This document shows, piece by piece, positions 6,359 to 38,875 of a stretch of DNA of 44,628 bases (position 1 is its first letter; every line of letters starts with the position of its first letter). Location: the UHGV virus genome UHGV-0097092; one strand, 5' to 3'. The translations under genes and the position numbers were made by a program. The notes beneath the pieces were generated by a model. The model was not told the DNA's origin, made no database searches, and saw only the letters and a list, made by a program, of their open reading frames with translations. The stretch comes from a virus.

Positions 6359-6644
6359 TGGTTGCCTCCGCTTCCCACGTTTTCAGACTTTCACCACAGA
6401 ATGGGCAAAATGAAACTCGAATAGGCGATTTAGAAAATTCACCAGACCGCAGCATGATCAGGTCCTGTGAATGAATTAATTCATGGTTATAGACTTTGTA
6501 TTTCAGCAGGCCTTTTCGCGTCGTGTATTCAGCATCCTGCTCCAGAGATTGTGCCAGCGCCGCGCACGGTTCTATTTTTCTGCCATTAATCAAACAAGTG
6601 GAGATTCTGCACTTTGCAGCTCCGTCACCGTTACCTTGACTCAT
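6345..6644 (-). CDS. small zinc-ribbon-like protein
   Basis: 99 aa with CxxxC ... CPFCG motifs. Confidence 0.45.
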   Translation of the reverse strand: MSQGNGDGAAKCRISTCLINGRKIEPCAALAQSLEQDAEYTTRKGLLKYKVYNHELIHSQDLIMLRSGEFSKSPIRVSFCPFCGESLKTWEAEATSEQN

Positions 6645-6657
6645 TGCGTTGTTCCCA

Positions 6658-7653
6658 TCAGTTATTAAACGTGATCACTCCGCGCTCGATGGCGAAGTCG
6701 AAAAGCTGGTTAGCGACTACATAAAGGCGTATGCCATGTGCTTTTTCCCATGCCCGGACATCGTGTTCTGCGCTTCTGGCGCAGTCATCGCAAAGAGGAA
6801 CAGCCCAGCGGTCGTGTTCGTTTAACGAGCGGGCGCGGTACATGAACGGGTGGTTAACTTTGCCACCGCATCCGATGCACGGACGAGAAACCACAAAGCG
6901 GAGATAAGCCGGGCTTTTTCCGAGTAAGGTTTTTGGACGGCGCATATATAGGAGGCCAGAATCCTCATCTACAGACAGGTTGACGATCTGCTCTGCGGTT
7001 ATGTCCACCAGCTCGCGCGTACTGCGCTCCCAGGTGATATCTGATTCTTTCAGCGTACCGGTAGGGATTTCAGTTTTTGGCTGACAAAATGCAATGCGCC
7101 CGGCTTCATCTGGCAGCTCATCTTTCAGATTCCGGCGAATGGCCCAAAAAGTGAGTTCAACCATGCTCAGATCGCGTTCTGGCGGTAGTTTTAACTCGCT
7201 CGCAGCCCAGTTCATAACCCAGTTGGCGCGATTCAGGGATAACTGGTCGTCCAGCTTGCTGTACCCCTTCATCATGTATTCCGCATCATGCTTCCAGCAC
7301 AGGCGAACGGCAGAACCGTTATAGAAGTGAGTGGTTAGCTGGTGGCTACAATCGCGCTTATCATGCGCCTGGCAATCGTGAATGTTGGTGCTAACCCAGT
7401 GAACGATAGAATCCTCGCCACCTAACGCATTAAATACGCGCTCACTTTGAAAAAAGGGTGTCAGTGACTGGTTGGCAACCAGGGAATAATTCAGATCCAC
7501 GACGCCATCAGGGGTGTTTTCAGCCTGTTCGCGCGGCAATGGGGAGATAAGAAAACGGCGGCCTGCGCCGATGTAATTGCTGGTGGGCTTATCTACAGGA
7601 AAGACAGCCACACCAGTTTCATTTACGACATATGGGGTGATTATTGCACTCAT
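6658..7653 (-). CDS. DUF968-family protein with Cys-rich C-terminal region
   Basis: 331 aa; C-terminal RPCIGCGG...PLCDDCARSAEHD resembles the DUF968 HNH-like region. Confidence 0.55.
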   Translation of the reverse strand: MSAIITPYVVNETGVAVFPVDKPTSNYIGAGRRFLISPLPREQAENTPDGVVDLNYSLVANQSLTPFFQSERVFNALGGEDSIVHWVSTNIHDCQAHDKRDCSHQLTTHFYNGSAVRLCWKHDAEYMMKGYSKLDDQLSLNRANWVMNWAASELKLPPERDLSMVELTFWAIRRNLKDELPDEAGRIAFCQPKTEIPTGTLKESDITWERSTRELVDITAEQIVNLSVDEDSGLLYMRRPKTLLGKSPAYLRFVVSRPCIGCGGKVNHPFMYRARSLNEHDRWAVPLCDDCARSAEHDVRAWEKAHGIRLYVVANQLFDFAIERGVITFNN

Positions 7654-7694
7654 AATGCATACCGACTCTGTTTTGTTCCGAGCGGTAAAATAAT

Positions 7695-7727
7695 ATGTTA
7701 GAAAATTAAAATCAACAATCTAACACG
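7695..7727. promoter_or_regulatory. promoter-operator-like palindromic motif, copy A
   Basis: ATGTTAGAAAATTAAAATCAACAATCTAACACG; TTAGA/TCTAA arms around an AT-rich, -10-like core. Confidence 0.45.
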
Positions 7728-7757
7728 ATTTTGAGCGCGTAAACGATGTAACCCGGC

Positions 7758-8441
7758 TTACGGTTGCCCTCCCTTCACCTGCATTAGCGTCAGGTTTCCG
7801 CAAAATACAGCACCAGTATCGATATAATGCTGGTTCCAGAATGCTTTTGGGCTTTTAGCCGGGGTGTGTCCGAAGATAAATCGATCTGCACCTGTAATTT
7901 CTTCACCGATGCCATCTATCGAATCACTAACACGGTCGCGCGACCAGATGACATTGAAAAGCGGCACAGCCTTACCGAACTGATACTCTCTATCCGGATA
8001 GTCAGCATGAGCAATGACAATAGTCTCCTGCCCGGTGTTCAGCTCAATGATATGAGGCAATTGCCTTACCAGCTCCACCAGCGCCCTGGCTAAAACTTCC
8101 TTATCACTATCCAGCATAAAGAACCACTGGCCGCCATTCATTAGCCAGTTATTCACGTTTCCAGCTGGGCTTAACGCATCGATCATCAACCTCTCATGGT
8201 TACCCATGACAGCCCGGAACCAGGGCATTTGCAATAACTCCAGGCATTCGACATTTTCAGTGCCGCGATCGATAAGGTCGCCGACTGATATCAGTAAATC
8301 CTGCGCCGGGTCAAAATCCACACGATGGAGTTCATTCATAAGCAGGGTGTAGCAACCGTGCAAATCACCAACAACCCATATGTTTCTGTATCCTGAACCA
8401 TCAATACGGCTATATAACGCCTGGTCGTTAACGGTGATCAT
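7758..8441 (-). CDS. Ser/Thr protein phosphatase, lambda PPase / PrpA-PrpB type
   Basis: metallophosphatase motifs GDLHGC, GDLIDRG, GNHE. Confidence 0.8.
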
Positions 8442-8665
8442 TCTGCAACATCCTCCAAATCAGCAACCGCGTCCATCACATCAGAACCGCGAATAACTTC
8501 AAAAGCGCGGCAGGCCATTTCAAACACCTGTTGTTCTTGCGGATGCGGTGACTCCCAATACTTAAAACCAGGTCGATGCTCGTAACCCATCATGGAATAA
8601 AAATCGCCAGCAAGTTCAATCGCGGCATCAACAAGTTCGCGATTTGTCATCGTCTGTTCTGTCAT
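8438..8665 (-). CDS. hypothetical protein (75 aa)
   Basis: ORF translationally coupled to neighbours; acidic. Confidence 0.45.
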
Positions 8666-8937
8666 TTGGTTTTCTCCTGTCTGAACATCACTATCATCAG
8701 GTCGCCTTTTGTCGCTATCCTCGCTGTTGTGCCTGGTTCAATGCGGCTAAGTTCAAATGCGTCATAGAACGCCTCCAACGCTTTCTGGCGTTTTTCCTGT
8801 TTGCGGCGCTTTCCCCACTGCTTTAGAAAAACAGAGGCCGCCCACTTCCCCGCACTGAACATGATGTAAAACCAACCGAGAAGTGCCAGACCGGTATTTA
8901 GGAGCGTATCGATCGTTATTGTCGTGTCGATATTCAC
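8662..8937 (-). CDS. small membrane protein
   Basis: 91 aa with a hydrophobic helix (LLGWFYIMFSAG) followed by a basic stretch. Confidence 0.45.
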   Translation of the reverse strand: MNIDTTITIDTLLNTGLALLGWFYIMFSAGKWAASVFLKQWGKRRKQEKRQKALEAFYDAFELSRIEPGTTARIATKGDLMIVMFRQEKTK

Positions 8938-9650
8938 TGGTTGCCTCCTTTGCGAAGCTGGTCGGCGAACAAACGTACACCAGACGCTTCACTGCGTAGA
9001 AACTTAACGGCATAATCAAAACCACCTCGTTCTGCGTCGTCTGCTGCGTTGTCGAGGTTATCTGCGTACATCTCTACCCCCTGCGCACGCACTTCAGCCA
9101 GGAAAGCGTCGGTGGCTGGGGTTTCAACACGGATGCTGTCGCGCAAGATGAAAAATGCATTGAGCATTCCTGTCTCTGGCACTTCATCCTGATGCTTCTC
9201 ATACGCATCAAGAGCCTTCATCATCTCAGCTCCGAATGGTTGAGGGTGCACAGACTTCAGCTCCGCATTCTCCGCCGCCAGCACCACGCGTTCGCTCTCC
9301 AGTTCTGCAATGCGCTGTTTTGCGGCATCAAGTTCAATCGATAATTTTTCCAACTGCTCTTTATGCTTCTTGTATTCCTGATATGCGTGCCAAGACTGAC
9401 CTTTGCGCACACTATCCGTGATATCAGTAATCTGTTCTGGTGTTAGCGTGGTCAGTGGCTGTGCTGGGAAAATCAGCACTTTGCCGGAATCCCAATCAAA
9501 ACCAGCGTGAATTGACTGAACCTCAACTGATGGTGTTGAACCGATGCGACCAGGCGAATGAACAACGATCGTTACATCCATATCGCGACGATGGCTGTGG
9601 TTGTTGGACAAAATACGATTCACCAACTCAGAAAATTTGGAAAATTTCAT
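8934..9650 (-). CDS. Ead/Ea22-like protein (start taken at ATG 9650)
   Basis: shares the C-terminal module and the 3' junction sequence cactggttgcctcctttgcgaagctg with 5741..6358; ATGA overlap with the upstream gene. Confidence 0.55.
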
Positions 9651-10009
9651 GCTGATTCCCTTTGCTCTTCCTGGATAATGTTGTTGCAATCTTTCACGCA
9701 CTCGTTGCAGATGAAGACGTTGTCCCCGGCAATTAACTTTTTAACGGTGTGCTGGGATTTGTTGCAGAAGCTGCAATAAAGCGTTGGACTGGTTGATACG
9801 GATGGTGCGCCAGATGTCAGCCGCGCGATGTCGTTCTTGCGACGCAATATCACACGGCTGAACTCAACCAGCTTCTCCGGGGATATATCCTCCTCCGTAG
9901 CGAGCGTTTCTAATCGTTCGAGTATGTGGAAGGCTTTTTCCTGGGTAATCCTGGGTAATTCAGCGTTACGCTCTGCCAGTTGTGCGGGCGTTAAACCTTC
10001 AGACTTCAT
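9647..10009 (-). CDS. protein with C-terminal ClpX-type C4 zinc-finger domain
   Basis: [39 protein letters not shown] closely parallels the ClpX N-terminal zinc-binding domain. Confidence 0.6.
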
Positions 10010-11209: not shown

Positions 11210-11788
11210 ATGCAGAGACAGAGTTATTGGGAGAAACAGAGACAAAAAGCCATGCAAAAACTGGCTGATCCGGAATGGCGGGAAGAGCAAAGGGCAAAAC
11301 GTCTTCAGCAGGCTCAACGCCAGCAGCAACGCGCAAGGGAAAAAGCCGCATCGCCTGAATATCGTCAAAAGAAACTTGAAAAAGTGAGGCAAAGTGAACA
11401 GCGCAGAAGAGAGAGGGCGGCGTCAGCCCTCCCCAAAAAAACGCGCCCGTCACGCGGATTAAAAGGGAGATCACTCACAGCAGAAGAGCGCCGGATACAG
11501 GACGCTATAGGCAAACTCCCCTGTATTGCCTGCCATCTTCACGGGAAGCATAGCCCTGTCGTATCTCTCCACCACATATTTGGCAGAACGGCTAAAGATG
11601 CCCATAAATACGTTCTCCCTTTGTGTAAATGGCACCACCAGCACGCAGCGCCAGCAGAGATCCGCGAACAATATCCCTGGTTGGTTCCTGTTCATGCTGA
11701 TGGAAAAATAGGCGGGAAAGCAGATTTTATACGGCACAATGCCGAAGAGATGACGCTCTATCAGACGGTGCAAGAAATGGTGAATTAA
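11210..11788 (+). CDS. ref: Ref-like HNH-type recombination enhancement protein
   Basis: basic Gln/Arg-rich N-terminal region plus C-terminal Cys/His core (LPCIACHLHG...LPLCKWHH), matching the P1 Ref architecture. Confidence 0.55.
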   Translation: MQRQSYWEKQRQKAMQKLADPEWREEQRAKRLQQAQRQQQRAREKAASPEYRQKKLEKVRQSEQRRRERAASALPKKTRPSRGLKGRSLTAEERRIQDAIGKLPCIACHLHGKHSPVVSLHHIFGRTAKDAHKYVLPLCKWHHQHAAPAEIREQYPWLVPVHADGKIGGKADFIRHNAEEMTLYQTVQEMVN

Positions 11789-12344: not shown

Positions 12345-12737
12345 TTAAAACTCACCTGCACGCTGTTTTTCAAGCACAGATTTAACATTTGGCGCTTTAC
12401 CCTCAAAAGAATGGAAAGTGCCACATTTTTCTGTCTTCACCTCGCGCAGAGCTTCGCCATCGGCATTCTGCCATTGATGGGATAATGTCATATCACCGCG
12501 AGAAGGAACATCAAGCGAGTACAGCGTATAAGTGCCTCCCATCTCTGCATATTCCTGGAACACATAACTCATTACGTCAGATTCAGTTTTACGATGTGCG
12601 TTATCGACCTTATTCCCGTTCAGAAATATAGCGTTTGGATAGATTTTTATATCAAACTGACCGCATTTCACTTGCAGATTCCCAGCGTCTGCCAGCAAAG
12701 GAAAAGCAGCCAATAAAGCAATAGCCAATCTTTTCAA
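12345..12737 (-). CDS. exported protein of unknown function
   Basis: 130 aa with signal peptide MKRLAIALLAAFPLLADA. Confidence 0.5.
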   Translation of the reverse strand: MKRLAIALLAAFPLLADAGNLQVKCGQFDIKIYPNAIFLNGNKVDNAHRKTESDVMSYVFQEYAEMGGTYTLYSLDVPSRGDMTLSHQWQNADGEALREVKTEKCGTFHSFEGKAPNVKSVLEKQRAGEF

Positions 12738-12757
12738 TTCTGCCTCCGCTGCGTAAC

Positions 12758-13381
12758 TTATTGCCCGTATTTTTTACACCATTGCTCTGCCATTTGTTTG
12801 GCTAAAGGCCCGGCTACTGCACTGTATTCTGCTGTTTTACTTTGCACACATGAAGCAGATGGTTTTTTATTTCGCTGCTCGGTTAGTTTGCGCTCATAAG
12901 CCATCATGCTATCGAACCCGGCAATATCACTTTGGCGAAGCATTCCCTTTTTAACCAAAAATTGCTGCCCCTCTGGCACCAACGCAAGCATAAAAAGTGG
13001 TTGCAATAACTCACCTAATCCTTGCTGGCGATACACTTCGAATTGCTGCCATCCCTGACTTAATCTGGAAAGAGTATCTTTGGTTGAATAACCTGTTTTT
13101 GTTATAGCTTTGTCCGTCAGATATGCTGTATATGCAAAAACGCAAAAGTCAGTTTTACCAATAAACTGAGTTCCAACAGGCCGTAATGGAATGCCCTCCC
13201 TCTTGCAAAAGTCCATAATGGCCGCTTGTGAATGATCCCCACCAGCGTTATTCATAACCTGCTGCCCTGCCCTGAATTGTGCAGGTAACGCAGTTGCATT
13301 GGCAGTATTAGCAGATACGCATCCCAACATAGCCGCGAGCGCGGCCCCTAAAACCCTTAACTTCACTACACCATCCTTCAT
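12758..13381 (-). CDS. exported protein of unknown function
   Basis: 207 aa with N-terminal signal peptide. Confidence 0.5.
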   Translation of the reverse strand: MKDGVVKLRVLGAALAAMLGCVSANTANATALPAQFRAGQQVMNNAGGDHSQAAIMDFCKREGIPLRPVGTQFIGKTDFCVFAYTAYLTDKAITKTGYSTKDTLSRLSQGWQQFEVYRQQGLGELLQPLFMLALVPEGQQFLVKKGMLRQSDIAGFDSMMAYERKLTEQRNKKPSASCVQSKTAEYSAVAGPLAKQMAEQWCKKYGQ

Positions 13382-13597
13382 GTAAACAAAATGAAGTTTT
13401 ATGTTATAAAAACAATTAACTACATCAACATGATTTAGGCCAAATTTCGGTCAAAAAATAAAATCCACAAAAAGTGGTTGACACTATTTTGGAAATCACA
13501 AACTGCACATAATCCATCGCGCTAACGGCTCCCGTTGAAGGTTCTTTTGACGATTAACTTTCAGCCGAAGCGCGGTAGGGAGTCATAACGCCAAAGC

Positions 13598-13622
13598 AGG
13601 CCGCCATGTGCGGCCTTTTTTT
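13598..13622 (+). terminator. intrinsic terminator-like hairpin plus T7 run on the plus strand, 28 bp upstream of the next start
   Basis: stem aggccgc/gcggcct, loop catgt, then ttttttt. Confidence 0.5.
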
Positions 13623-13649
13623 GTATCCGTCATCCGTGGAGGAAGGACA

Positions 13650-14303
13650 ATGGAAAAGATCGCAATATTCAGCCTGACCACCAGCAAGCCTCAAATGCTC
13701 ACTGCAATACTGAAAGACGGTGCTCTCATTATTAACGAAGTAAAACCCCTTCCCGCGTCAGCATTGGAGCAAAAGCAAAAAATTCCTCCAGCTATAGCAG
13801 CCCTGCGGAAAAGCAAATTTAAGGTACTGGTAGACGAAATTACGCCAACGATCTCCGCTGGCACCGGAGCAAGCCAGGTTACTCTCAAGACCCGTCATGC
13901 CGATGGCAGAGCAGCAATCATCGTCGGGATGGAAAGATACAGAGAGTTAAAACTCCAGAAGCTATTATCCCTGCCGCAAAATAACAAAGGTGCTTTCGAA
14001 ATCCCTGACTCCATCGTTGACACCGAATACAACGGTAACGGAGAAGAAGTCTACCGGGTGAACTGGCAGGATATCAGGCCGGAACATATTCTGATGGTCC
14101 TGTGTTGCTACGCGACCGTATACCACAACGTTGCCAGTGCAGATTACGTAGAGCAGATGACCGGCACAGTCGAGAAAGAGCAAAAAACAGGCATACTCGC
14201 TTCGTTCCTGTCCATTATTGGGCATGAAAAAGTTGAAGCAGGCACCTCCCAGCCAAAGTCACTGGCTGGGAAAGAAGTTGATGAAGATACCGTGATACTT
14301 TGA
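13650..14303 (+). CDS. hypothetical protein (218 aa)
   Basis: ATG with GGAGGAAGG upstream; no recognised domain. Confidence 0.5.
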   Translation: MEKIAIFSLTTSKPQMLTAILKDGALIINEVKPLPASALEQKQKIPPAIAALRKSKFKVLVDEITPTISAGTGASQVTLKTRHADGRAAIIVGMERYRELKLQKLLSLPQNNKGAFEIPDSIVDTEYNGNGEEVYRVNWQDIRPEHILMVLCCYATVYHNVASADYVEQMTGTVEKEQKTGILASFLSIIGHEKVEAGTSQPKSLAGKEVDEDTVIL

Positions 14304-16150: not shown

Positions 16151-16184
16151 TTGACAACAAAGGCGGTCATACAGACCGCCAAAC

Positions 16185-16544
16185 TCATACACCAACCAGG
16201 CTTTCAAGAGGAATGCCAAACTGGGAATGTAAACGACGAATCATAGGTAACGTTAAATTTCGTGTCCCATTTAGCACTTCGTAAACACGATTTGACTTAC
16301 CAATCGCCGGTTCCAGATCCTTCACGGTCAGCCCTTGCTGTTCCATACGGAATTTAATGGCTTCAATAGGTGATGGTGGCTCAATTGGGTAATGCTTTTT
16401 CTCGTACTCTTCAATGAGCAGGCACATTACTTCAAAGAAATCGCCTTCCGGTGTGTTCATTTCCGGTTCGTTATCGAACATCGGTTCGACCGCACGCAGT
16501 GCGGCCTCATAATCTTGTTCTGTACGGATAGGTTTAATGTTCAT
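16185..16544 (-). CDS. higA: HigA-family antitoxin (XRE-type HTH)
   Basis: C-terminal HTH IGKSNRVYEVLNGTRNLTLPMIRRLHSQFGIP; sits directly downstream of the HigB-like toxin gene. Confidence 0.65.
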   Translation of the reverse strand: MNIKPIRTEQDYEAALRAVEPMFDNEPEMNTPEGDFFEVMCLLIEEYEKKHYPIEPPSPIEAIKFRMEQQGLTVKDLEPAIGKSNRVYEVLNGTRNLTLPMIRRLHSQFGIPLESLVGV

Positions 16545-16547
16545 GAT

Positions 16548-16850
16548 TTACTCCAGTTCTATTGTATCAGCTTCAATGGCATCGTATTCCTTATGTGTTC
16601 CAATAAACTTAACGAACATCCATCCTCGCTGATAAGCAATTGCGACAATTAACCTGTAATCATTTCCCTTAATATTGAACACCACGCGCCTGTTTTTAAG
16701 GATGCTGGCTGTCCGGTACTGTTCTTTGATCTCAGCCGGATTTTTCCAGTCAGCCTTTGTTGCTTCATCAACCCATGCCTTTAATGGCTGTTCTGCATCG
16801 GGATTCTTCGCCCAGAAATCCCTTAGTGTTTTTACCGAAATTATTTTCAT
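16548..16850 (-). CDS. higB: HigB-family (RelE/ParE-fold) toxin
   Basis: start MKIISVKTL; VFNIKGNDYRLIVAIAY...FVKFIGTHKEYD pattern typical of HigB. Confidence 0.65.
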   Translation of the reverse strand: MKIISVKTLRDFWAKNPDAEQPLKAWVDEATKADWKNPAEIKEQYRTASILKNRRVVFNIKGNDYRLIVAIAYQRGWMFVKFIGTHKEYDAIEADTIELE

Positions 16851-16878
16851 CACAGATTCCTTCTCGCTGAAAGTATAG

Positions 16879-16926
16879 TAGTCCCAATATGGGACAATGT
16901 AAAGCACTTTAGTCCCATGTTGGGAT
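16879..16926. promoter_or_regulatory. two palindromic operator-like sites upstream of higB
   Basis: TAGTCCCAATATGGGACA and TAGTCCCATGTTGGGATA flanking an AT-rich promoter-like stretch. Confidence 0.45.
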
Positions 16927-16995
16927 ATGAATTGAAATCACAATCTCCAGACAATGCACCCTCGATACCTGATAAATCGACCTTTGAGGATGCTT

Positions 16996-25612: not shown

Positions 25613-25645
25613 ATCCGTTCCTCGGTGTGATTTTGGTATCAAAAC

Positions 25646-25830
25646 GGTTCCAGATAAGAGCCTTTTTGATGCGGGACAGGCTCTATAATGGAGTCATGAA
25701 TGTTTGGCAAAGTATAACATCAATCAGACCAAATACACCTTATATTGCATCCTATTTAACACGAAATCAGCCCCAAATTGGAACCAGATACAAAATTGCA
25801 CCACAACAGCACCTAACTGGTTCCAGATTA
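25646..25830. repeat. three GG(T/A)(T/A)CCAGAT repeats in the region upstream of the ParA-like gene; candidate centromere/operator
   Basis: GGTTCCAGATAAG (25646), GGAACCAGATACA (25780), GGTTCCAGATTAA (25820). Confidence 0.35.
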
Positions 25831-27372: not shown

Positions 27373-27457
27373 ACAAAAATATTCCGAAATTTAACTCTCA
27401 GTTTGAATGACGAAATAACAAAGTGATGACAATAGGAGGATAACCAGGAGATGAAGA

Positions 27458-30150: not shown

Positions 30151-30257
30151 CGTGTTAACAGATTTTATTTTACTAATGCTATTGACTAAATCACAAAGTT
30201 GGTATTGTTAGCGCGTCAAAAGAACCTTCACGCCGCGCCCGAATTTAGGGCTTAACC

Positions 30258-31955
30258 GTGAATAAAAACATTCAGCCAGCTCGTGATCGCGAGCGCGAGA
30301 TTATGAATCGGGCGGCAAGCGTCATGGCTATGACCGTCGATCCGACCACCGATGCTGCGGGCAATATGATTGCTGATCAGGCAGCGATGATGGAGAACCT
30401 GGATAAAGCTATCCAGAAGGAGGCTATGTTTGAAGGCGTAAATCCAGAGGTTGCACGTCAGATCGCTGGTGGGTGGGCTATGTCTCTGCATGAGTACAAG
30501 CGCCAGCATGGTCACTACCCGGCAAGCGATATCCTGGCAAACGCACACATGGCACTTGAACGCCTGATGACTGAATGTGCCAGCGATACACACGTAGGCA
30601 CTGGCAAGGCAATGTTTGAGTCTGTCGCGCAATCAATGCGTAGCTCTGACGGCGTAATGAAAGTTGCTCAATATGCTGCACTAATTCTGCCTGCCTCTCT
30701 GGGTGCTGCTACCAGTGATGCCTGTACTTTTGTTCCTTGTGATCGTGATGAGTCAAATATTTATGAACTGGTCAACGTAGCAGGCACAAAATTCGGCACC
30801 TTCGAGCAAGGTGACGAACTGAATATGCAATCCGCTGGTGTTTATTCTCAAATGAAGCGCCTGTATACCCTTTCCACGAAAGGGGACGGCAGCACCAAAA
30901 CTTTCCAGTTCGACATCCAAAATTTTGAGGGGCAGTCCTGCCCGCTGCGTGCTGGTTATAACAAGCTGCTTATCAACCGCAAACCGTCCAAGGTTGACGA
31001 CGGCGATGGCAACCTTTATTTCAATGATAAAGACTGCAAAGGCAATGCATTCTCAGCTACCGCAAAAGTCGCTTATGACACTGGTGTCATCGACATTACC
31101 TTCACTCAAGCGCCAGCAGAAGGGACTGAAATTGCGGTTCAGGTCGAAATTAACATCGAGCGCAATCCAAGCCTGATTCCGGTAATCAACCAGGCTATGC
31201 GTAAGTATGAAGTTCGACCGTCTCAGTACGTAATTGCTTCCGAACACACCGTAATGTCCGCTTCCGATTTAAGCCGTGAACACGGCCTTGAATTGGCGGC
31301 ACTTCAGTTCTCCGCAATGCGGAACTGGATCTCCCATGAAACCGACATCATGCGTCTGCGCACCCTGGTATTCCATACCGTTTATGGTCGTGAATTTGAT
31401 GTGGCTCTGCCTGAAGCTCAAAACTATGAGTCCTGGGTCGGCCTCCTGCGCCACGCAGTAAACGCCCTGTCTCAGGAAATGGCAAACCGCACCCTGACCA
31501 CAGGTATTCGCGGTGGCTTCGCAGGTGGTGACGCAGCTAACTTCCTGCGTTCTCTGCCTCCACAGCACTTCCAAATCGCGCCGGGCTACGTTCAGTCACC
31601 GTATGTGCAGTACATCGGCACCCTGTTTGGCACGATTCGTATTTACGAAGTGCCGCAGCCTGTGTGTGAGCAATTCAAGGCTCAGGGATATGACTTAGGT
31701 CTGGATGACATTTATTTCTATGGTCGCGGTGAAGGCATCGGTAAAGCCGGGCTGATCGCTGGTGATGCGGTCCCAGCAATCCCGTATGTGCACGAAACCA
31801 ATCCATCTCTCGTTAACCGCACCACTCTCTGGGGTAGTGCTATCAACGAAGTCCACCCGCGCAACGGTGAGAATTATTTCGCCCGCCTGCGTCTGACTCG
31901 TGCCAAAGAAGGTGCTATCGACATGCTGACAGGCAAGGTTAACGAAAAAAAGTGA
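30258..31955 (+). CDS. putative major capsid protein (T4 gp23-like)
   Basis: 565 aa; helical N-terminal region; loose gp23-like C-terminal patterns (GRGEG, GTLFGTIRIYEV); heads the head-tail cluster. Confidence 0.45.
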   Translation: MNKNIQPARDREREIMNRAASVMAMTVDPTTDAAGNMIADQAAMMENLDKAIQKEAMFEGVNPEVARQIAGGWAMSLHEYKRQHGHYPASDILANAHMALERLMTECASDTHVGTGKAMFESVAQSMRSSDGVMKVAQYAALILPASLGAATSDACTFVPCDRDESNIYELVNVAGTKFGTFEQGDELNMQSAGVYSQMKRLYTLSTKGDGSTKTFQFDIQNFEGQSCPLRAGYNKLLINRKPSKVDDGDGNLYFNDKDCKGNAFSATAKVAYDTGVIDITFTQAPAEGTEIAVQVEINIERNPSLIPVINQAMRKYEVRPSQYVIASEHTVMSASDLSREHGLELAALQFSAMRNWISHETDIMRLRTLVFHTVYGREFDVALPEAQNYESWVGLLRHAVNALSQEMANRTLTTGIRGGFAGGDAANFLRSLPPQHFQIAPGYVQSPYVQYIGTLFGTIRIYEVPQPVCEQFKAQGYDLGLDDIYFYGRGEGIGKAGLIAGDAVPAIPYVHETNPSLVNRTTLWGSAINEVHPRNGENYFARLRLTRAKEGAIDMLTGKVNEKK

Positions 31956-38733: not shown

Positions 38734-38875
38734 GTGAGTAGCGTCACTTAAGGTGTAAAAATCACCCTCAATAATCGCTTCTCGACCGGCAAAGATCTTC
38801 ATTCAATCCCCATCGCAAATCACACACTCCCTATCCTCTGGAAAATGAACAGATACCTGCTTTTCGGAGGAATAA

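Follow-up and report, generated by a model that had tools for sequence, protein, structure and literature searches.

UHGV-0097092 is a viral genome of 44,628 nt (the window, to which all positions refer unless stated otherwise), which the annotation of matching plasmid and phage D6 records identifies as a D6-like, P1-related phage-plasmid. Around 100 E. coli plasmids of ~90 kb match the region at 80-100% identity, and phage D6 matches it at 96%. The locus raises the question of what is encoded in the intergenic sequence in front of mat, the gene for the maturation control protein, where a TTGACA hexamer at 13478 is followed on the same strand by a GC-rich hairpin and a U run that ends at 13622. 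A preliminary description of the sequence had suggested a plus-strand small RNA (sRNA) of ~100-140 nt or a leader containing a terminator. The results of the current study support such an RNA, as the comparative evidence points to a functional structured RNA of ~105 nt at ~13519-13622, which is probably an unrecognised small regulatory RNA. We propose that 13478-13622 comprises the promoter and the body of a terminator-ended mat leader RNA that also acts in trans on the mRNA of the major capsid protein, a reading that we consider on balance probable.

A predicted structured leader RNA upstream of mat

The stretch from the TTGACA hexamer to the U run (13478-13625) is nearly invariant in an alignment of 11 relatives, and both of its flanks diverge; the same nearly invariant block is seen across the D6-like plasmids of E. 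coli, Salmonella and Shigella. In Enterobacter plasmids it is the only part of the intergenic region that can be aligned (81% identity), and there the loop of the terminator is changed and the stem is kept. Scans anchored on Mat recovered 79 loci from IMG/VR and 3 from the species representatives of GTDB, and these 82 loci hold 67 distinct upstream regions that fall into eight lineages (A to H, Table 2). All lineages follow one plan, in which a promoter-like motif, ~80 nt of structured sequence, a GGCCGC-loop-GCGGCC hairpin with U's, a ribosome-binding site (RBS) and mat succeed each other, and the leaders differ in length among lineages by non-multiples of 3. A predicted promoter, a short structured RNA and a terminator, placed upstream of and co-oriented with a gene reached by read-through, is the layout of a leader-derived sRNA.

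Positions 13598-13622 have the sequence make-up of an intrinsic terminator, a GC-rich stem-loop directly followed by a U tract. The stem (13598-13616) has 7 bp, six of them G-C, and encloses a 5-nt loop; the T7 run occupies 13616-13622, and the ATG of mat at 13650 lies 27-28 nt past it. The hairpin with its T run ~28 nt before the start codon, the TTGACA at 13478 and the minus-strand orientation of the adjacent upstream gene had all been recorded in the preliminary description and were confirmed in the sequence. By pattern alone the site is not beyond chance, as 2 kb of sequence yielded 4 terminator-like sites where 2.3 would be expected. Conservation indicates that this hairpin is not a chance feature, because all 82 Mat-encoding loci, down to 33% Mat identity and with P1 included, carry a GC hairpin 22-34 nt upstream of the start codon of mat. 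Its stem is nearly invariant, with one compensatory exchange of G-C to A-U, and its loops vary among the relatives. RNA polymerase is predicted to stop at this site.

The TTGACA hexamer is separated by 24 nt from CATAAT, the one plausible -10 hexamer downstream of it, and because this spacing is too long it is not a canonical sigma-70 -35 element here; a scan for sigma-70-type promoters at the site found none. In two plasmids (H80 and H81) homology to the window begins exactly at 13478. The recognisable promoter is instead a motif at 13493-13513, whose geometry (a 9-nt box, a 4-nt gap and a 6-nt hexamer) is that of the annotated P1 late promoters LPmat and LP23. The motif, AAATCACAAWST-N3-(-10 hexamer), has 8 matches in the window against 1.46 expected, a count reached in none of 100 shuffles, and five plus-strand occurrences precede mat and other morphogenesis genes (Table 1). 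P1 has 11 late promoters, which are activated by Lpa (PMC10695390). By likeness to P1 we read the motif as a D6-type late promoter, putatively activated by an Lpa homologue, and its -10 hexamer would place the start of the RNA at ~13519-13521.

Minimum free energy (MFE) folds from the predicted 5' end of the leaders of lineages A, B, C, E, P1 and JK004 each contain a closing helix (P2), two hairpins (HP1 and HP2) and the terminator. In a hand-made structural alignment of the eight lineages, the seven shared positions of P2 show two to four canonical pair types each, with three or four at five of them, and HP1 also covaries across lineages. Because alignment by hand favours structure, covariance models were built. 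Model R1, for which only lineages A and B were used, detects the leaders of C and D in their correct positions (E 3e-4 to 2e-3), and model R2, made from lineages A-D, finds the leader of lineage E (E = 6.7e-5). In the model-derived alignment 90.3% of the cells are paired, compared with 82.6% in shuffled alignments (0 of 500 reach the observed value) and 35-59% with slid partners, and three pairs are changed on both sides. Cross-lineage alignments made with MAFFT misplace P2, and RNAalifold on those alignments sees the terminator only. Synteny, architecture and a shared loop motif (YUUUUSA) suggest that the leaders of lineage F, P1 and JK004 are homologous to the others. The features of the predicted RNA that are relevant to Hfq are limited to the U-tailed terminator and an A/U-rich spacer. 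A pseudoknot between the 5' GCGC and the GCGCGG motif was considered and dropped, as folds from the predicted 5' end put GCGCGG in HP2.

The covariance search also returned a weak match in an intergenic part of the window on the plus strand (25643-25698; 16.7 bits, E ~0.04). It has a comparable closing helix of GGUUCCA with UGGAGUC and a hairpin with UUUUUGA in its loop, no terminator and no complement elsewhere in the window, and is possibly a relic or a chance match.

The covariation bears on a simpler view of the hairpin, in which it is a plain terminator that insulates mat from plus-strand transcription of the upstream ref, icd and antirepressor genes, and in which the conserved part is promoter or operator DNA. 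The gene order lends this view some credit, since the immediate upstream neighbour in P1 is ref, in the same orientation, some relatives (L010) have icd and a small open reading frame (ORF) on the plus strand upstream with no minus-strand insert, and the minus-strand genes of the window resemble a variable insertion. The promoter motif, however, lies upstream of the structured region, as the annotated Pmat and LPmat of P1 lie upstream of the hairpin, and the 28 nt that separate mat from the terminator leave no room for a promoter. The ~80 nt from promoter to terminator are moreover the best conserved part and carry covariation of the RNA type, and we regard insulation as very unlikely.

The mat locus of P1 gives an independent view of the same arrangement. 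The P1 record annotates the C1 operator Omat, the sigma-70 promoter Pmat (-35 TTGACA) and LPmat (-22 box AAGTGACTT, -10 hexamer CAGAAT) directly upstream of an unannotated stretch of ~125 nt, in which CGCCCGGUAC forms a 10-bp long-range helix with GUACCGGGCG. This sequence also holds an inner hairpin, and its GC hairpin, followed by a run of U's, ends ~12 nt before the ATG at P1 position 2827. GenBank places the start of P1 mat (L011, AF234172) at ATG 2716, giving 250 aa, inside the leader and in a frame that runs through the terminator hairpin. This start is doubtful because homology to other Mat proteins begins at 2827, where the homology to D6-type Mat starts and where a Shine-Dalgarno sequence is present; the annotations of JK004, SJ46 and D6 use the short start. 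We consider the 2716 start probably wrong and ATG 2827 the real one. If the region coded for protein, either as an N-terminal extension of Mat or as a leader peptide, the in-frame ATG 2716 of P1, which opens a frame into mat, and an in-frame GTG at 13608 of the window would be its traces. Such an upstream frame would cross the terminator hairpin, no upstream start codon or RBS is conserved, the leader lengths do not keep the frame, and the homology of Mat begins at the downstream ATG with its own Shine-Dalgarno sequence, all of which makes a coding role extremely improbable.

Complementarity to the predicted 5' end of the capsid mRNA

A search of the window with the complement of the HP1 loop returned two near-perfect matches besides the site itself. 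The first extends to a perfect 17-nt complement of the 5' arm and loop of HP1, of which ~5e-4 would be expected anywhere in the window. This proposed target at 30214-30230 lies 16.6 kb from the mat leader and begins 6 nt past the -10 hexamer of the capsid promoter. It is predicted to be the extreme 5' end of the capsid mRNA, with the start placed from the promoter motif; in P1 the predicted start of the capsid mRNA is the G of GAAAAGGG. The second match, a 13-nt complement (AUCGUCAAAAGAA, 11362-11376) within ref (11210..11788), is absent from the ref of relatives, lies in a coding stretch rich in Lys and Arg and is probably a chance match. The portal gene prt was also considered as the identity of the target gene and rejected: the prt leader of P1 has no complementarity, and tblastn identified the gene as the major capsid gene, gp23 in P1.

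Pairing between the two leaders was compared in seven lineages (A, B, C, E, F, P1 and JK004), and in every one of them the target begins within a few nt of the predicted transcription start (Table 2). The two sides have changed together. P1 and JK004 differ by two full compensatory exchanges (C-G to U-A and U-A to A-U) as well as two wobble-compatible changes, and lineages A and E by two more full exchanges (U-A to A-U and A-U to G-C). Within the A/B clade all four substitutions in the 17-mer yield G.U pairs and none an A.C mismatch, and the target substitutions in other plasmids of lineage A are only C to U opposite G. When the longest ungapped helix was determined across lineages, the cognate pair topped every row and column (17, 17, 13, 12, 13 and 14 bp, against 6-11 bp), with the exception of the close relatives A and B, between which the helix likewise reaches 17 bp. 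Shuffled leaders reached the observed helix length in 0, 0, 19, 97, 24 and 9 of 5000 trials. In cofolding the site is used with a net gain of 4-16 kcal/mol in six of the seven lineages; the MFE dimer of P1 instead pairs the A-rich target with the U tail. Judged from these sequences, the leader has one hallmark of a trans-acting base-pairing sRNA, namely a conserved seed complementary to a target mRNA that is kept by compensatory change.

The same data speak to the notion that the 17-mers are inverted DNA sites for a phage regulator, such as an Lpa homologue or Mat, with no pairing between RNAs. Both copies lie within ~35 nt downstream of late-promoter-like motifs and a core of CAAAAG/CUUUUG is shared in most lineages, which favours this notion. 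Their distance from the promoter differs, though (~+1 at the capsid gene and ~+16 at mat), the other late-promoter-like sites of the window are without the sequence, and the leader copy forms the arm and loop of a covarying hairpin. Within one plasmid the copies differ where G.U still pairs in the RNA orientation (4 of 4 substitutions in A/B), and across lineages the two sites co-vary so as to keep complementarity and not identity to a consensus. We therefore rate a DNA-site function as highly improbable.

The target is embedded in a leader whose features suggest a design for translational control. Predicted folds of lineages A and B pair the 3' end of the target and the nucleotides that follow (UUCACG, 30227-30232) with CGUGAA (30257-30262), which holds the GUG start codon, and analogous sequestration of the start codon appears in the folds of lineage F and P1. 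The start codons are weak ones, GUG in lineages A, B, C and F and UUG in P1 and JK004. The capsid leaders of all lineages, at 30231-30260 in the window, also keep a small hairpin, (C)GCGCCC-loop-GGGC, whose loop varies and which contains the weak Shine-Dalgarno sequence AGGG. Further variants of the capsid leader occur among the capsid loci of IMG/VR (L403, L404, L418-L423 and L406), namely ACGCCAAAAAACCUCUCA, CGCGUCAAAAGUAACUCUCG and GUCGAAGAGUUAACUCC, and these predict more variants of the sRNA seed.

Table 1 Positions of the mat leader, its proposed capsid target and neighbouring features in the window
Feature	Position	Strand	Remarks
Gene adjoining the intergenic region upstream	12758..13381	-	'simB-like' in D6
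TTGACA hexamer	13478-13483	+	TTGAC kept in all D6-type lineages; -35 of Pmat in P1
Late-promoter-like motif AAATCACAAACT-GCA-CATAAT	13493-13513	+	-22 box 13495-13503; -10 hexamer 13508-13513
Predicted ~105-nt RNA (mat leader or sRNA)	13519-13622	+	5' end placed from the -10 hexamer; 3' end at the terminator U run
Closing helix P2	13527-13584	+	GGCUCCC 13527-13533 with GGGAGUC 13578-13584; encloses two hairpins
Target-pairing region UGAAGGUUCUUUUGACG	13536-13552	+	HP1 5' arm and 5' part of the loop; has the family motif YUUUUSA
Hairpin HP1	stem 13537-13541 with 13558-13562	+	16-nt loop 13542-13557
Small hairpin HP2, GCCG-AAGCG-CGGU	13564-13576	+	stem 13564-13567 with 13573-13576; GCGCGG motif kept in lineages A-F
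Intrinsic-terminator-like hairpin AGGCCGC-CAUGU-GCGGCCU, then U7	13598-13622	+	82/82 relatives
mat, maturation control protein	13650..14303	+	217 aa; RBS GGAGGAAGG at 13638-13646
Late-promoter-like copy	16935-16955	+	before the gene-7-like tail gene
Late-promoter-like copy	27413-27433	+	before the gene at 27446 or 27459; product PAAR-like by eye only
Capsid promoter	30182-30208	+	TTGACT 30182-30187; -22 box AAATCACAAAGT 30188-30199; -10 TATTGT 30203-30208; P1 homologue is the annotated LP23
Late-promoter-like copy	30188-30208	+	within the capsid promoter above; before the capsid gene
Proposed target CGUCAAAAGAACCUUCA	30214-30230	+	perfect 17-nt complement of 13536-13552
Major capsid protein gene	30258..31955	+	565 aa; GUG start; 97% identical to the D6 capsid, 44% to P1 gp23
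Late-promoter-like copy	38817-38837	+	before the gene near 38846

Table 2 The eight lineages of Mat-encoding loci and the predicted pairing between mat leader and capsid leader
Lineage	Source or Mat identity	mat leader segment	Capsid leader segment	Predicted pairing
A	D6-type from E. coli (the window's own)	UGAAGGUUCUUUUGACG	CGUCAAAAGAACCUUCA	17 bp
B	Enterobacter	UGAGGGUUCUUUUGACG	UGUCAAAAGAACUUUCA	17 bp, 3 of them G.U
C	Mat 53-56% identical to window Mat	GAGGGUACUUUUGACA	UGUCAAAAGUAaCCUC	11 + 4 bp
D	Mat 50% identical to window Mat	UGAUGGAAUUUUUGACA (candidate)
E	Mat 40% identical to window Mat	GGUACUUUUGGCG	UGCCAAAAGUAUU	13 bp
F	Mat 35% identical to window Mat	GUUAGCUUUU(U)CGACG	CGUCGAAAAGCUGAC	~15 bp, one bulge
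G	P1	UGGAUCCCUUUUC	GAAAAGGGAUUCA	13 bp; target directly after annotated LP23
H	Cronobacter phage JK004	UGGGACUCUUUUCA	UGAAAAGAGUUCCA	14 bp

Proposed mode of action and relation to known RNAs

We propose the following series of steps. Transcription from the late-type promoter of mat would start at ~13519-13521, and most transcripts would stop at the terminator at 13622 and yield a free sRNA of ~105 nt; transcripts that read through would be the mRNA of mat. Expression of mat would depend on this read-through, because the terminator sits between the only recognisable promoter and mat. The exposed 5' arm and loop of HP1 would then pair in trans with the first ~13-17 nt of the capsid mRNA, and this binding would open the leader stem, free the GUG start codon and so activate capsid translation. 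As an alternative output, pairing over the 5'-terminal nucleotides would protect the capsid mRNA from 5'-end-dependent decay, and repression, for example by RNase III cleavage of the duplex, is possible.

The position of the terminator also fits a leader that acts in cis only, as an attenuator that sets the level of mat, with the capsid complementarity either modulating termination or mat translation or being without output. This position, with the only recognisable promoter on one side and mat on the other, is kept in all 82 relatives, and P1 is suspected of having antiterminators, none of which has been demonstrated (PMC10695390). Amber mutants show mat to be essential, so some read-through is needed. 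The layout of a terminator-containing leader, which the preliminary description had offered as one possibility, is thus present, but its counterpart, an antiterminator, did not emerge: the MFE folds, the only ones covered, contain no competing helix in any of the eight lineages, and all keep the terminator. A trans effect on the terminator would require pairing during the brief transcription of the leader, and a cis-only model leaves the most conserved feature, the compensated complementarity to another mRNA, unexplained. We consider such an attenuator unlikely.

Several points weigh against our proposal of a leader RNA that acts in trans. We infer where the RNA begins, that it is terminated, that it occurs as a free sRNA and in what abundance, and in which direction it would regulate. 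The structural alignment across lineages was made by hand and leans towards structure, and even there P2 has exceptions, the only ones being two A.A mismatches in one locus (L055). The R2 covariance model did not detect the leaders of lineage F, P1 and JK004. In lineage D the U tract is interrupted (UUUCGCCUUUU), which may make termination weak, and the comparison of pairing left out the capsid leader of this lineage; in lineage C the helix contains one G.A mismatch. RNAduplex z-scores on whole sequences are modest and noisy (-1.5 to -3.2), and for whole leaders the longest-helix statistic was used in their place. The folds of lineage E and JK004 sequester the start codon without involving the sRNA site. 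The direction of regulation is the weakest part of the model, and the folds point weakly to activation.

The proposal can be extended to a reciprocal switch that times head assembly, in which the terminated leader RNA caps the first nucleotides of the capsid mRNA, which would shield it from 5'-end-dependent decay and unmask its weak start codon, and pairing with the capsid mRNA in turn unfolds the leader and shifts read-through and the synthesis of Mat. We regard this extension as unlikely. If it were true, an RNA whose sequence has for twenty years carried the annotation of the N terminus of Mat would account for part of the classical 'maturation control' phenotype of the P1 mat locus.

The predicted RNA does not belong to a described family as far as it was compared. 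Rfam at the gathering threshold gave no family in the whole window, permissive searches of 13200-13800 and 6500-10000 gave nothing meaningful, and the P1 leader had no match in Rfam. The family isrK (RF01394) scored 14.7 bits against a gathering score of 50 and over the terminator only, and the leader is not a member. The C4 family (RF01695) had no match in the whole window at the gathering threshold, nor permissively in 6500-10000. The GenBank records of D6 and P1 and the PGAP plasmid annotations inspected carry no feature at the leader RNA, and full-text searches of the literature yielded neither an account of an RNA in front of mat nor one of riboregulation acting on gene 23, an earlier mention in two key genome papers being possible. 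The kind of RNA is known, a leader-derived phage sRNA like StxS and IsrK, and the family and its target appear to be new.

StxS is an sRNA generated by early termination of the late transcript of a Shiga-toxin phage at PR' (PMC7547250). As proposed for the mat leader, its transcription starts at a phage late promoter, an intrinsic terminator lies just upstream of the late genes and the terminated product base-pairs in trans. The promoter of StxS is, however, a lambdoid one antiterminated by Q and its targets are host mRNAs, whereas the mat leader has a P1-type promoter (Lpa-activated in P1), no known antiterminator and the phage's own capsid mRNA as predicted target; the two have no relationship in sequence or in Rfam. 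In IsrK of the Gifsy-1 prophage, one promoter gives a terminated short RNA and a read-through mRNA (PMC4825925). By pairing in trans, the short form renders an inactive mRNA leader translatable, which is the mechanism that we favour for the mat leader, but IsrK acts on its own read-through isoform and the target of the mat leader would be another transcript, 16.6 kb away.

Within the same phage group, the c4 RNA of P1 and P7 (annotated in P1 at 48343-48419) is likewise a small structured RNA whose exposed loops pair with a phage mRNA leader and control translation. It is processed from the very transcript that it regulates, its targets a2/b2 lie immediately downstream and it represses icd/ant; the mat leader, in contrast, is terminator-ended, lies upstream of mat and would pair with the capsid mRNA. 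Anti-antisense activators of translation include DsrA and RprA, which act on rpoS, and RNAIII, which acts on hla; these are sRNAs of host stress or virulence. The mat leader resembles them in its predicted mechanism, in which an sRNA that binds the upstream arm of an inhibitory stem in the leader makes the ribosome-binding region accessible. Here, in contrast, the pairing would cover the very first nucleotides of the mRNA, and what is sequestered would chiefly be a weak GUG or UUG start codon, with activation predicted from folds.

Genomic context and implications

The gene at 13650 had been taken for the first gene of a cassette, which it is not: it is mat, and together with the tail genes that follow it belongs to the conserved phage backbone. 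Neither Mat nor the proteins encoded next to it had a sequence match in Pfam or PDB. The minus-strand genes upstream vary among relatives. In a comparison with L003-L010, the genes between the icd/antirepressor module and the mat promoter (12345-13381, minus strand) differ, this slot holding a simB-like gene in D6, unrelated hypothetical genes in others and none in L010. Gene content thus marks 12345-13381 as a variable insertion spot, with a predicted right border at or near the TTGACA at 13478. A second variable slot lies between the gene-25-like and gene-7-like tail genes (16181-16909), where the window has other minus-strand ORFs than pEC213_2 and D6, both of which carry a higBA toxin-antitoxin pair there (L001 10882-12600). 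The icd-antirepressor module of the window resembles immI of P1. Upstream of the icd-like gene, at ~8100-8440, relatives have in the corresponding position a small ORF that PGAP assigns to the 'ash family', and a divergent c4-type RNA may be hidden nearby.

P1 is among the oldest model phages, and phage-plasmids of the P1/D6 type are widespread carriers of resistance genes in Enterobacterales. The copies of the late-promoter-like motif provide a candidate map of D6-type late promoters. The leader and its proposed target would form a natural and compact sRNA-target pair with several orthogonal variants, given by the lineage-specific seeds. If our reading is true, the start codon of P1 mat would be corrected, the poorly understood mat locus would gain a molecular handle, and a conserved riboregulator of the capsid gene would add a new post-transcriptional layer to the control of late genes in this group.

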